Shown here: positions 1,679 through 47,139 of the stretch, one piece after another
Numbering within the stretch: the first letter of the stretch is position 1
Layout of the letters: each line of letters opens with the position of its first letter
Assembly: GCA_028534125.1 (NCBI GenBank)
Contig: CM052816.1
Coordinates: 56,112,001 to 56,176,000, forward strand
Length of the DNA: 64,000 nt
Direction: 5' to 3'
DNA from: Lama glama
Taxonomy: Eukaryota
Program-made: the position numbers and the translations under genes
Notes under the pieces: generated by a model
Seen by the model: only the letters and a program-made list of their open reading frames with translations
What the model was told of the DNA's origin: nothing
Databases searched by the model: none

Positions 1679-3851
1679 CAGGTATACCTCAGAGAGACTG
1701 TGGGTTGGTTCCAGAGTGAATATCACAATAAAGTGAATCACATGTATTTTTTTGTTTCCCAGTGCATATAAAAGTAAGTTATGTGTATGCTATACTGTAG
1801 TCTGTTAAGTGTGTGATAGCATTATGTCTAAAAAAAACCCCAAACATACCTTAATTAAAAAATAGTTTATTGGTAAAAAATGCTAACCATCATCTGAGCC
1901 TTCAGCGAGTTGCAATCTTTTTGCTGTTGGAGGTCTTGCTTCAATGTAGATGGCTGTTGATTGATCAGGGTAGTGGTTGCTGAAGATTGGGATGGCTGTG
2001 GCCATTTCTTAAATAAGATAGCCATGAAGTTTGCTACATAAATTGACTGACTCTTCCTTCCACTGACAGTTTCTCTGTAGCATGCAATACTGTTTGATAG
2101 CATTTGACATACAGTAGAAATTCTTTCAAAATTGGAGTCAGTCCTCTCAAACCGTCCTGCTGTTTTATCATCTAAGTTTATATAATATTCCAAATCCTTT
2201 GTCATTTCAGTAGTCTTTGCAGTATCTAACCAGGCTTCTCAAGAAGCCGCTTTCTTTTCTTACCCATAATAAGCAACTCCTCATCTATTTAAGTTTTATC
2301 ATGAGATTGCAGCAATTCAGTCACATCTCTGGCACTATCTATGAAAGCTATAGCCTTATGAAATGTATTTCTTAGATAATAATACTTTAAAGTTGAAATG
2401 ACTCCTTGATCCATGGGTGGCAGAATGGATGTTTTATTAGCAGGCATGAAAACAACATGAATTTTGTTGTGTGTCTTAGAGCTCTTGGGTGACCTGGTAC
2501 GTTGTCAGTGAGCAGTCATATTTTGGAAGGCAGCTATGCTCACCACTATACCACCAACGCATGCAGCAGTCATATTTTGAAAGGACTTTTTTTTTCCCCC
2601 TGAGCAGCAGGCCTCAACAATGGGCTTAAAATACTCAGTAAACCATGTCAATAGATGTGCCATCATCCAGGCTTTGTTGTTCCATTTAGAGAGCACAGAC
2701 AGAGTAGATTTAGTATCATTCTTAAGGACCCTAGTATTTTTGCAGAGGAATATGAGCATTGGCTTCACCTTAAAGTTACTACCAGCGGTGTTAGCCCCTA
2801 ACAAAGAGAGTCAGCCCATCCTATGAACCCAGGCATTGACTTCTCTTCTCTGGCTGTGAAAGTTCTAGATGGCATCTTCTTCCAGTAGAAGGCTGTTTTG
2901 TCTCCATTGAAAATCTGTTGTTTACTTTCATTAATGATCTTAGCTAGATCTCCTGGATAACTTCCTGCAGCTTCTGCATCAGTGATGGCTGCTTCACCTG
3001 GCACTGTTACGGAGATGGCTTCTTTCCTTAAACCTCATGAACCAAACTCTGCTAGCTTCAGACTCTTCTTCTGTAGCTTCCTCACCTCTCTCAGCCTTCA
3101 TAGAAATGAAAAGAGTTTTAGGGCCTTCCTATGGATTTGTCTTTGGCTTATGGGCATTGTAGCTGATTTGATCTTCTATCCAGACCACTAAAACGTCCCC
3201 ATATCAGTAATAAGGCTATTTTCCTTTCTTATCATTCATGTGTTCACTAGAGTAGCACTTGACATTTTTTTCAACAACTTTTGCTTTGTATTCCCAAGTT
3301 GGCTAACTGTTTGGCACAAGGGACCTAGCTGTTGGCCTGTCTCAGCTTTCAACACGCTTTTCTCACTGAGTTTAATCGTGTCTGGCTTGACTTAAAGTGA
3401 GAGACATGCGATTCTTCTTTTCACTTGACCACTTAGATCCATCACAGGGTTATTAACTGACCTAATTTCAATATTGTTGTTTCTTAGAGAATAGGGAGGC
3501 AGAGGAGAGAGAGATGGGGGAACAGCTGGTTGGTTGGAGTAATCAGAGCACACATGTTTATCCGTCAGGTTTGCCATCTTATGTAAGTGTAGTTTATGGT
3601 GCCCCCAAACAATTATAATAGTAACATCAACTAGTCCCAGATCACCATAACAAATGTAGTAATAACAAAATAGTTGGAAGTATTTTGAGAATTACCAAAA
3701 TGTGACACAGAGACATGAAGTGAGCAAGTGCTTTGAGAAAAATGGTGCCAGTAGACTTGCTCAACATGGGATTGCCACGAACCTCCCATTAGTAAAACAT
3801 ACTGTCTTTGAAGCACAATAAAGTGAGGTGCAATAAGATAAGGCGTGCCCC
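1679..3851 (-). mobile_element. Tigger1 DNA transposon, near full length, decayed transposase
   Basis: TA|CAGGTATACCTC terminus; ORF fragments [22 protein letters not shown] and [18 protein letters not shown] match Tigger1 transposase. Confidence 0.9.
2523..2560 (-). pseudogene. Tailless retrocopy of tRNA-Gly(TCC) 5' half
   Basis: Minus strand GCGTTGGTGGTATAGTGGTGAGCATAGCTGCCTTCCAA; 15-bp TSD agcagtcatattttg at 2511-2525 and 2565-2579. Confidence 0.9.
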
Positions 3852-4173
3852 CAGTTAAGCCGCTGCCGGGGCCAAGCTGGAAACTCAATTGGCTGTCCTA
3901 GGTGAACTGGGAGGTATGTGCTTTCTAGGAGAACAAGGTCCAGTCAGTACACATAGAGTAAAAGAAAGGTCTAGTTTACATGATTGAAAAGATGGTGATC
4001 AAACTGGAAAATGAGACAGTAAAGAGAACAGATTTGTAAGAAGGTCAAGAAATTGGTTTTGGACCAAACAACAGTTAGTTGGTTCTCTAAGGTGTTACTT
4101 TGTTAACAGATTCCTAAAATTTTGTATTCATCCTTAATAAAACAAGTTGGGATGGTTTACTTTGGTTTTCTAG

Positions 4174-4330
4174 ATTGGAGTCTACTGCACATACATCAGA
4201 GAGCTCAGAAGAATTCTTGGAAGAGGGACCTGAACAGAATGTGATGGAATTTGCAGATGTAAGTAGTGATAAAGATGTTCGGCCAGCACCAGAAACCCAG
4301 CCACGCCTGGAAAAGCAAGATGGTGAAAAG
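4174..4330 (+). CDS. FAM169A: FAM169A (SLAP75) third-last coding exon
   Basis: ttttctag| acceptor, |gtatga donor; translates LESTAHTSESSEEFLEE...EKQDGEK, resembling the FAM169A acidic C-terminal region; ends phase 0. Confidence 0.93.
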
Positions 4331-7054: not shown

Positions 7055-7374
7055 GTAATGGGGGGAAATAACCAAATTTTTTTTATAGTTAGAGTGTTCC
7101 AGTGTTGATGGCTTGGCTGGGGCACTGTAGGATATATATTTGCCTCAACTTTAACATGCACAGTCCTTCTGGAAAATTAAATTATACTAGATTTGGTATT
7201 TTAAGTTGCAGTCAATAATATTCCATATATTTGCATCTTTTGTAACCTTATTCATTCATATCTGGATAAAGCATTATTTACCAAATATTTGAATACCTAT
7301 TGCTTACGTAGTCTCTGACCAACATAGTCATTTTAATTTGTTTTAATTAGGGAGACACTAATTAGACACTAATT

Positions 7375-7430
7375 CACAACACTGTAAAATGATTATGAAT
7401 CAATAAAAAATGTTAAAAAAAACAAAAAAA
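7375..7430 (+). mobile_element. Extremely 5'-truncated young L1 3' tail
   Basis: AATAAA plus A tail; 18-bp TSD actaattagacactaatt at 7357-7374 and 7431-7448. Confidence 0.8.
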
Positions 7431-7496
7431 ACTAATTAGACACTAATTAGATCAGATTAGTGAGGAAAACTTGAATGGAGTATTTTAAAATAAAAT

Positions 7497-8495: not shown

Positions 8496-9044
8496 ACTTC
8501 ACGTATAACTGACTCAGAAACCTTGCTAGACGAAGGCCCATCTGATGAAAAAGGGCACACTGAGGAGAAGCTGCCTCTAGTTTCAAGAAAGAAAGCTCAC
8601 TTTGGCAGTTCAGACAACGCTGCTACTATCCCAAATGAAGAACGGTCCGACAGTGGTTTTCCAAACTCTGTGGTCACTGAATTTTCTGAAGAATCGATCT
8701 CTGAAAATGTGTCACCCAACACTACTTCCTCATTGGAAGACCAGGGTGAGGAGGGGGTCCCTGAGCCCCAGGAAACGTCTCCGGCTCTCCCGCAGAGTTC
8801 TTTGATAGAGGTTGAACTTGAGGATGTGCCATTTTCACAGAACGCCGGACAGAAGAACCAGTCAGAGGAGCAGTCCGAAGCATCTTCTGAGCAACTGGAT
8901 CAGTTTACACCATCAGCAGAGAAAACTGTGGATAGCAGCTCAGAGGAGATAGAAGTGGAGGTGCCTGTCGTGGACCGGCGGAATTTAAGAAGAAAGGCCA
9001 AAGGGCACAAAGGACCTGCAAAGAAGAAAGCCAAGCTGACCTGA
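8496..9044 (+). CDS. FAM169A: FAM169A last coding exon
   Basis: tttttag|ACTTCA; 183 codons ending RRKAKGHKGPAKKKAKLT-TGA, the recognisable FAM169A C-terminus. Confidence 0.96.
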   Translation, partial: TSRITDSETLLDEGPSDEKGHTEEKLPLVSRKKAHFGSSDNAATIPNEERSDSGFPNSVVTEFSEESISENVSPNTTSSLEDQGEEGVPEPQETSPALPQSSLIEVELEDVPFSQNAGQKNQSEEQSEASSEQLDQFTPSAEKTVDSSSEEIEVEVPVVDRRNLRRKAKGHKGPAKKKAKLT

Positions 9045-19150: not shown

Positions 19151-19774
19151 CTGTAGCAATGCAACAGGCGTTACTTTAATTTTAAAAAACTGCTGACAAA
19201 ATTATTCTTTAATACTTTCTTTTGAGCAGCATATAAAGTACAGAAGATCCAATGTCATCCACCATTCACTTGATTAAGTAACTCTTGCACTATTAAGCCT
19301 ATTCACATGATGTAAGTTTTTTTTTTTTTAACTGAAGTATAGTCAGTTTACACTATGTCAGTTTCTGGTGTACAGCATAATGTTTCAGTATACATGTACG
19401 TACATTTTGATCCTGAATGATATGAGGCATTAAGATTTACATCTGTAGTAATCTCAGTGAAAGTTACTGTTCATTGAAGGGAACTGTCCAAAATCCACCG
19501 GACCACAAAAGGGATAAACTGATTCCAGGATCTCTTTTCTTAATATCAACAATCTTGTTTTTCAGTATCATCATTATTCATACTTCTTATTTAAACATTT
19601 AAAAATTTTACTCAGTTTTATTGAAGTATAATATACATACATACAGTGGAATGTGCCCTTTTCAGGTGTATATATAGAGTTATAAGTTTTGACAAGTTCT
19701 ACAGTTCTGTAATCACAATCAAGACTGAGAATATTTCCAACACCCCAGAAAGTTCCCTTGTGTCACTCTGGTCA

Positions 19775-19809
19775 GCGCCGCTGGTGTAGTGGTATCATGC
19801 AAGATTCCC
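19775..19809 (+). pseudogene. Tailless retrocopy of tRNA-Gly(CCC) 5' half
   Basis: GCGCCGCTGGTGTAGTGGTATCATGCAAGATTCCC; 16-bp TSD cccttgtgtcactctg at 19755-19770 and 19808-19823. Confidence 0.9.
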
Positions 19810-20867
19810 CTTGTGTCACTCTGAAGTCAATCCTCTTTTTCCACCTTCAATTTGGTATCTATTGTTCTAGTTTTGCCTTTCCCAGCAGGAAATGTAAACG
19901 GAACCTACAGTAATGAGGATTTTTCATCTACTTTTTCACTTAGCGTAAGACTTTGAGATCCCCTCATGTTACATATATCCACACTTCAATTTTTAATTAA
20001 CAAGTAGTATCCCACTGTATGGATACACCACCGTTTGTTTATTTATTTACCAAGTGATGGATATTTGGGTTGTTTCCAGTTTTTAGTGAGTAAATACTTG
20101 CACCTAAGTCTTTGTGCGGACATATGCCAAACTGTTTTCAAAGTGGCTGTACTAATTTGCGTTTCACCAACAATGTGTGGGATCTCCTTTTGCTTTTTAA
20201 GTGCCTGTTTTATTTTATACAGTAATGTTTTATTTTAAACATGCGGCTCCATTCCATGTGTACTTTTAAGACTACAAAAATAAAACAATGCAAAGCCAAC
20301 TCCCGTACGGAGAGTAAAGTAACAACGAGGTAGTTGGGATCAGGTGTGGAGTTTTCAACTGCTATCACATAAACTTTGCAGCAACCGTGAGAAAGGTCTG
20401 AAGAATGCCATTTTGCAGAGAAATAGAGATTAAAGATGTAGTAAAAAAGACAGAATCTGGCAGCCCGATTTGGGCTGTATGCTTGGTTCTGCAATTCATT
20501 AGTGGCTTGGCTGGTGACAAGGTGTGCCTTCAGTGTGCTCCGCAGAGATGAGAATCAATGCGAGATTAAATCCTACGGTAGAGTTATCAGTAGGCTCTGA
20601 CACTGATGTCCACACAACTTTCAGCGAAGCCAGGAATTGAATAAAGTGAAACCCGTCTGGCTCCAAAGCCTGTGCTCTGGCAAATACCCGACTCTATGGC
20701 CCCAAAGTGAACGTCTTCACTTTACAGAGCGCACCGCACGGTGTCCACCCTCATTCCCTCAACAGTACCTCACTTCTGCCTACCACCTCTCACTGCCAGC
20801 CCCAGCGCCCTCAAGCCCCGCCAACTCTGATGCCGTCGGTCGCGAGCGCCCGAGGAGACCCTCTCAC

Positions 20868-30841: not shown

Positions 30842-32184
30842 TTCACCAGGTGTTTATAATTCATTTATAGTTCTTCCCAGGTCAGATGTAGTTTACCAAT
30901 CAGAAATTATTTTTTCCATAAGGTATGTTGCCTAGCAATGTAATTTACATACTTGTTTTCTGGACTCTAGAAGAAAAGAGACAGAAAGTTAACCAGAGGT
31001 CAAATTGAGTATATTCACACTGGTTGCAACCATTCTCCCCAATTTTTTCATCTTGCAAAACCCAAACTGTATGCTCATTAAAATGTCATTGAGCCTTAAC
31101 TCATAGTAATAGCAGTATTTACCTAAGTTTTGAATTTATTTTTTAATTATAGTATGCCAAAATTTATGACTCTTGACCAGGCATGCACATTTAATACCCA
31201 CGTAGCTTTAAAAAAATTTTTTTATAAATAATAATGCCCTAGCTCCATTCTGAAAATTAAGATGCAGCTTGTTTGGGTATGGCCTGGACATCTGTATTTT
31301 TGTTATGTATTTTGAAACTCTCTATTTGACTTATACACATTTGTGATTGTTACATTTCTCTGATCAATCTTTTTGTCATTGTAGAGTGCCTTTCTTTAGC
31401 TGTGATAAAACAGTTTGTTTTGAAGTTTGAGATGGAGATCATCAGGTCCATAATACCAGAAGTGGGAATATCTTTTTCAAAAGCTCAACCGTGATTTTGA
31501 AATGCACTCTATTAAGAACTATTTCTCTACACCCTTGGAATTGGCGGAGACAATGTTTATAGAGGAGAAAACCACTCAGGATTAGAATCTTCATGAGGAT
31601 GGGAACATAATTTCTCATAGAATTATTGCTGTGTAAATGGAAAACAGCAAAACTTTGAACTTTGTTAGGTGTCCTCTTTTGTGTCACAAATCTGATTAGA
31701 ATCCTTCCCTCACATCCCCGGTTTGTATCCTTGAAGCAAGGATTCAGATTAGGTGGACCTAGGTAATTATCAAGTTTTTTTTAAATTGTTGTTAAAAAAA
31801 TATGCACATAAAATCTACCATCTTAACCATTTCTAAGTGTACAGTTCAGTAGTGTCGAGTATATCCACACTGTTTGTAACCATTCTCCAGAACTTTTTCG
31901 TCTTGCAAAATCCAAACTTTTTCGTCTTGCAAAATCCAAACTATATACCCCATTTCCCCCTCTGCCCAGCCCCTGGAAACCACCCTTCTACTTTCTCTTT
32001 CTGTGACTCTGACCTCTCTACATACCTCATATAAGTGGAATCATACAGTATTTGTCTTTTTGTGACTGGCTTCTTTAACGCTTAGCATAATGTGCTCAAG
32101 GTTCATCCATATTGTGGCATGTGTCAGAACTTCCTTCTTTCTTAAAGCTGAATAATAATTCCATTGTATATATGTGTATGTGTG

Positions 32185-47028: not shown

Positions 47029-47139
47029 CGGGGGAGGAAGGTATAGGTTTTTTTTTTTCTTATGGAGGCACTGGGGATTGAACCCAGGACCTTGTGCATG
47101 TCAAGCATGCACTCTACCACTGAGCTATACCCTTCCCCT
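47029..47139 (-). mobile_element. tRNA-Ala-derived SINE (vic-1-like)
   Basis: Minus-strand head gggtatagctcagtggtagagtgcatgc; flanking tcaaac[a/g]ttta repeat. Confidence 0.85.

Follow-up and report, generated by a model that had tools for sequence, protein, structure and literature searches.

Tailless retropseudogenes of therian mammals reportedly entered the literature with a founding paper by Schmitz in 2004. The available text of Noll 2015 (PMC5322556) describes tailless copies of processed and unprocessed tRNAs with 2–18 nt of complementarity to their targets and argues for internal priming. Its human list holds 67 Gly-TCC, 16 Gly-CCC, 15 Asp-GTC, 13 Gly-GCC and 9 His-GTG copies; by eye, the Gly-TCC copies are mostly 36–38 nt long, and 7/9 His-GTG copies measure 36 nt. 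Pre-tRNA retropseudogenes are also cited in the accessible part of a study on 3'-truncated U snRNA pseudogenes (PMC4476161). A 2025 preprint on tRNA/L1 chimeras (bioRxiv 10.1101/2025.02.02.635956) prefers, as far as its available text goes, cleaved tRNA halves, and the origin of tailless copies is debated between this view and the internal priming of Noll 2015.

Here we analyze a tRNA-Gly(TCC) 5' half in a 64,000-nt stretch of the Lama glama genome (contig CM052816.1, positions 56,112,001–56,176,000; hereafter the window). What is new is the species and the locus alone, the class being already catalogued in humans. We favor, with a probability of roughly 0.7, L1 target-primed reverse transcription in the germline that began at the anticodon of an intact pre-tRNA-Gly(TCC) and not on a germline half.

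Results

The insertion at 2511–2579 of the window is bounded by a perfect direct repeat (15/15 identical), with one copy, in tRNA orientation, on the 3' side of the half (2511–2525) and the other on the 5' side of the insert (2565–2579), separated by 39 nt of unique sequence (2526–2564). Read on the minus strand, the order is GCAT (2561–2564), tRNA nt 1–35 and then the repeat, whose first 3 nt, CAA (2525–2523), double as tRNA nt 36–38. The tRNA portion (2523–2560, minus strand) is identical at 38/38 positions to nt 1–38 of three full-length genomic genes (L031, L032, and L033), which ARAGORN assigns to tRNA-Gly(tcc) and which share its G20; a fourth Gly-TCC gene (L034) deviates at this nucleotide (T20). 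There is no oligo(A) tail, and the A run past the anticodon is target sequence that is found in paralogues of the host element too. When lengthened, the repeat reaches 20 nt at 95% identity because the target already resembled the tRNA anticodon region (7/8 nt), and a pyrimidine run before the 5' repeat copy gives an L1-endonuclease-like pyrimidine/purine site. A sequence-only reading of this DNA had reported the 38-nt minus-strand tRNA-Gly-TCC 5' end, the perfect 15-bp target site duplication (TSD), the CAA common to tRNA and target, the missing tail and the four extra nucleotides, and all of these are borne out here.

The copy comprises nt 1–38 of 72, within the size limits of tailless retropseudogenes (at least 30 nt, 5'-complete, 3'-truncated by at least 10 nt, TSD of 8–35 nt). 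It ends in the anticodon loop at nt 36–38, a position taken from standard tRNA numbering and ARAGORN, and its complementarity to the target is 3 nt when exact and 7/8 when lengthened, inside the 2–18-nt range. Together with the sequence match, the absent tail and the empty paralogous site described below, these features make it near certain that the insert belongs to this class, as proposed earlier; we regard it as a true tailless retropseudogene of tRNA-Gly(TCC), and a young one. Neither ARAGORN nor Rfam reports the tRNA half in the window, a weak match to snoTBR5 (E 3.5) was taken as chance, and MFE folding did not recover a cloverleaf (z of the insert +0.85). We rejected a tRNA-derived SINE, which would carry a 3' tail in addition to the A and B boxes, since the insert has neither the B box-bearing 3' half nor a tail.

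Perfect 15-nt repeats spaced by at most 100 nt occur just five times in the entire window. Two, at 7357–7445 and 31891–31940, comprise one around an A-rich 59-nt stretch (a possible short retro-insertion) and one that is a 24-bp tandem duplication. Another tailless tRNA half, which we take to be tRNA-Gly(CCC), lies at 19755–19822 (plus strand) with a perfect repeat of 15 bp (19755 and 19808) and five extra bases; it stops at a CCC common to the target and has 16 further genomic matches, 4 of which begin within the extra bases. A tRNA-like element with an A run after it at 47063–47134 (minus strand; ARAGORN Val(gac), Rfam tRNA 43.5 bits) is presumably a camelid tRNA-derived SINE of the Vic-1 type.

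An exon at 8496–9041 of the window matches FAM169A/SLAP75 proteins (best 98%, to Camelus ferus), and FAM169A exons are found on either side of the insert, at C1:56111400–56111561, ∼440 nt ahead of the window start, and at 4169–4330 of the window (plus strand, by protein and exon matches). The insert is therefore intronic and antisense to FAM169A, in line with the intron named by the sequence-only reading. An ESM Atlas search with the last FAM169A exon gave no usable match; weak FAM169A-like exon matches at C15:6515988–6528274 and C32:2141990–2155048 possibly represent paralogues.

The host element (1679–3850, minus strand, limits set by eye) is a decayed pogo/Tigger-type DNA transposon, presumably Tigger1, and Pfam DDE_1 was found on two of the seven peptides scanned, the minus-strand ORF pieces 2508–2810 and 2292–2504 (E 6e-10 and 3e-12). 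In 8/8 aligned paralogous transposon copies, picked from 40 scored out of 1384 candidates, we find an empty single-copy site without the insert, and an A>C change is present in both window repeat copies and in 0/8 paralogues. The transposon thus predates the duplication, and the relative age given earlier stands. Zero differences across 68 site-lineages set a 95% bound of 0.044 substitutions per site; the insertion is young, to the resolution of this bound.

A genome-wide search with a 26-nt core, allowing at most one mismatch, returned 122 matches, of which 100 were listed and retrieved. The listed matches represent 95 distinct contexts, of which 4 are genes and 91 are halves, and all Gly-TCC counts below refer to them; with about a hundred sister copies in the genome, the rarity implied earlier does not hold. 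The core pattern is blind to copies ending before nt 28 and its mismatch limit is biased toward young copies, and within these bounds the matches of the 91 listed halves end at nt 34 (1), 35 (1), 36 (5), 37 (29), 38 (44), 39 (9) and 42–43 (2), that is, at nt 36–39 in 87/91. The TSD filter was passed by 81/91 listed halves, 55 of them with perfect repeats, and the remaining ten (L028, L030, L042, L107, L112, L121, L122, L127, L136, and L137) were left out of TSD-based counts. TSD lengths among the listed matches are centered on 15–20 bp, and along the target consensus a pyrimidine-rich part gives way to a purine-rich one. A query with the 3' half over the genome recovered the genes (4/4 matches) and no 3'-half copies, and two older Gly-TCC copies (L035 and L041) are near full length. 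Full-gene control queries gave short 5' matches in 18/27 cases for His-GTG, 2/12 for Asp-GTC and 2/26 for Trp-CCA. We rejected spread from a master copy, given the missing B box and the varied leaders. One listed half (L076) lies within tRNA-SINE-like sequence, and another (L042) has such a sequence starting ∼50 nt downstream. Four ∼1-Mb contigs (C92398, C102397, C105730, and C101286) carry two copies of one locus, oppositely oriented and at roughly mirrored positions, and have the look of an assembly artefact.

Among the 81 listed copies with a called TSD, 62 carry 1–9 extra 5' bases and 19 carry none. Classes drawn by eye, after the data were seen, divide the 91 listed halves into GTGCA-type (25), GAG-type (20), GCAT/GTGT-type (7), T20 CG-type (7) and other or none (32). 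Exact GTGCA is present in 22/91 listed halves (including L008, L021, and L027; p 2e-33) and GCAT in 4/91, or in 3/90 when the window copy is set aside (p 0.004). The leaders of L032 and L033 end in GAG, that of L034 in GGCTCG and that of L031 in GCGT. Likeness to the leader of the T20 gene is found in 5/13 T20 copies versus 0/75 G20 copies among the listed matches (p 3e-5), and the same isodecoder leader test was not significant for L031, L032, and L033. At position −3 of the T20 leader, seven copies (L029, L071, L078, L085, L088, L089, and L095) have A, C or G and the gene L034 has T, which suggests that the flank of this gene has changed since those copies arose.

An exact-pattern search for GCAT directly before the tRNA start yielded four genomic places, all of them half insertions. 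The sequence-only reading had proposed looking for GCAT ahead of a genomic tRNA-Gly-TCC gene; this came out negative (0/4 genes in the assembly), the nearest leader being the GCGT of L031, one transition off. The extra bases of the window copy agree with the L031 leader at 3/4 positions, and over the final 8 bases the junction matches at 7. Post-insertion CpG decay by itself was rejected as the source of GCAT: GCGT is intact in 0/7 listed copies of the GCAT/GTGT class, too few (p 3e-6) at the rate of 15/91 given by the CpG within the tRNA itself. GTGCA, the most frequent leader class, matches none of the four assembly genes, which implies a missing or lost source gene, and the source genes of GTGCA and GCAT are probably unassembled, lost or since mutated.

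Because the extra 5' bases fall into recurrent classes and go with the isodecoder, the GCAT of the window copy is most likely a precursor leader, though no gene here carries GCAT exactly. Alternatively, L1 could have been primed internally on mature tRNA, with GCAT as junction filler of untemplated or template-jump bases. This would account for GCAT preceding no gene and occurring also inside the tRNA (nt 22–25), and extra 5' nucleotides are described as common at full-length L1 insertions in the available part of PMC2912911. The 19/81 listed copies without extra bases indicate that mature templates were probably used too. Filler should not recur, however, as GCAT and GTGCA do in the listed halves, nor should it follow the isodecoder, and long leaders of tRNA-His halves agree with genes. 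We consider filler on a mature template unlikely for the window copy.

The His-GTG set (17 retrieved of 18 halves, L147–L163) served as a control. Leaders of 18–21 nt are present in 7/17 and agree with the upstream flank of one gene at 15–20 positions; these point to specific genes and mark likely transcription starts. Four of the 17 carry a single extra G, with C or T at −1 in 8/8 His genes, and a single G is found in 1/81 listed Gly copies versus these 4/17 (p 0.003). G-1 is added to mature tRNA-His, and the lone-G copies fit this addition. The remaining His halves have a single A (2), no extra base (3) or a failed TSD call (1). The endpoint is nt 36 in 16/17. Precursor and mature templates are thus both used, with long-leader and lone-G copies sharing one endpoint.

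The bases of the target at the junction follow the anticodon. For Gly (n 79–80, listed matches), T34 is present at a frequency of 0.59, C35 at 0.46, C36 at 0.90 (72/80), A37 at 0.92, A38 at 0.59 and A at the position of G39 at 0.71. For His, T35 is found in 15/15 and G36 in 13/15, and position 37 is A or T, never G. Across the two families, the base at 36 depends on the anticodon (p 5e-9 and 3e-14). A37 is more frequent for Gly (73/79 listed matches) than for His (8/15, p 6e-4), and A38 shows no enrichment (p 0.78). In the simplest reading, the end of the nicked strand would pair with anticodon nt 35–36, and with nt 37 where this is A, in a codon-like manner on an intact loop. The microhomology priming suggested earlier is supported.

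The junction sequence would look alike for intact-loop priming and for a precursor already cut at nt 36–38. In the latter case, a nuclear nuclease would have cut the precursor in the anticodon loop, after nt 37 in Gly (the tRNA-intron position) and after nt 36 in His, and the free 3' end would have paired with the nick. The endpoints are indeed very tight, and pairing ends at A37, leaving A38 unused though it lies in the loop. For His, the endpoint agrees with the UN^N rule of RNase L, an enzyme that cleaves the tRNA-His anticodon stem-loop according to the available text of PMC5648034. Against a prior cut, endpoints vary by tRNA in step with the pairing open to an A/T-rich nick, leader-bearing and leaderless copies share endpoints, and Gly-TCC genes are intron-less (72 nt); in addition, for 5S and U2, the available part of Noll 2015 (PMC5322556) reports neither truncated copies with an A tail nor cDNA ends that match. 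A pre-cut template appears improbable to us. It would be a long shot, too, that pre-tRNAs with a leader and no intron are cleaved in the anticodon loop in germ cells, behind nt 37 in Gly-TCC and behind nt 36 in His, and that L1 captures these unreported leader halves. If this were true, the ∼100 copies would be a fossil record of the cut, of tRNA transcription starts and of lost or unassembled Gly-TCC genes (GTGCA, GCAT).

Discussion

Priming on the intact precursor can be laid out in four steps. L1 endonuclease would nick the DNA at the observed pyrimidine/purine, A-rich site and leave a DNA 3' end, which may then pair over 2–3 nt with the anticodon loop (C36, A37) of a leader-bearing tRNA-Gly(TCC) precursor; the register is suggested by the base composition of the targets and the precursor template by the recurring leaders. 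Reverse transcription to the RNA 5' end would copy nt 35 back to nt 1 and then the 4-nt leader, as seen in the product, and a second, staggered cut would yield the observed 15-bp duplication. Target consensus and TSD lengths fit an L1 origin, an enzyme assignment that sequence can make plausible and not demonstrate. The sequence-only reading had left the template open between a cleaved half and internal priming on a (pre-)tRNA; the second branch fares better, and the cleaved half is less favored.

An angiogenin- or sperm-type 5' tRNA half from the cytoplasm is a distinctly improbable template. Gly-TCC 5' fragments have been reported in sperm, according to the available text of a review (PMC9110440), and halves have been proposed as templates of tRNA/L1 chimeras in the accessible part of the 2025 preprint (bioRxiv 10.1101/2025.02.02.635956). 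Angiogenin-type halves, as described in that review, come from mature tRNA and are 30–35 nt long; the window copy needs nt 35 at least and, in place of a start at mature nt 1, has four extra leader-like 5' nt, and just 2/91 listed halves end before nt 36. Copy number and half abundance are also out of step, both in the human list as available (Gly-TCC 67, Gly-GCC 13, Asp-GTC 15, His-GTG 9) and in the llama genome (short 5' matches: His 18, Asp 2, Trp 2). The link drawn earlier to abundant germline halves is not supported, most copies having precursor-like leaders and human Gly-GCC, whose half is a classic example of an abundant one, numbering 13 versus 67 for Gly-TCC. The clean duplication at the site largely excludes an endonuclease-independent repair patch or chance DNA duplication: some targets are poor L1 sites (5/91 listed halves end at nt 36 without a next A), but TSDs are centered on 15–20 bp, targets are pyrimidine-then-purine and no target was lost at insertion.

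The single insertion carries little weight: it is probably neutral, most likely an inert intronic passenger because it lacks the B box along with the 3' half, and it could mark presence or absence among camelids. The family is of somewhat greater interest in hinting at the template and at how copying starts. Leaders and the His G-1 separate precursor from mature templates copy by copy, both with one endpoint, and the question of cleavage versus priming therefore becomes testable computationally in any mammal. Tailless halves may also mislead small-RNA mapping of tRNA fragments. Our literature search found no paper on leaders or codon-like anticodon pairing in retrocopies; Schmitz 2004 may already report both, and the novelty of the leader matches and of the anticodon pairing is uncertain.

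Taken together, the llama copy resembles the therian tailless retropseudogenes, as far as the available descriptions of these go, in its 5'-complete and 3'-truncated tRNA, its TSD within 8–35 nt, the lack of an A tail and target complementarity within 2–18 nt. The tRNA-specific match to nt 35–36 of the anticodon that is present in the llama set is not discernible in the pooled target consensus of Noll 2015 (PMC5322556) in its available form. The 3'-truncated U snRNA pseudogenes (PMC4476161, accessible part) are alike in L1 priming on a nick-paired single-stranded RNA loop and in nuclear recruitment, and differ in the template RNA. The tRNA-derived SINEs likewise have a tRNA head, a TSD and L1 dependence; unlike them, the llama halves carry neither B box nor tail, and each seems to have been captured independently from tRNA genes and not from a master element. 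The tRNA-half/LINE-1 chimeras (bioRxiv 10.1101/2025.02.02.635956, available text) also span tRNA nt 1 to ∼37 with TSDs; they are fused to L1 and have been read as cleaved halves, whereas the llama copy is solitary and has a leader-like 5' end.
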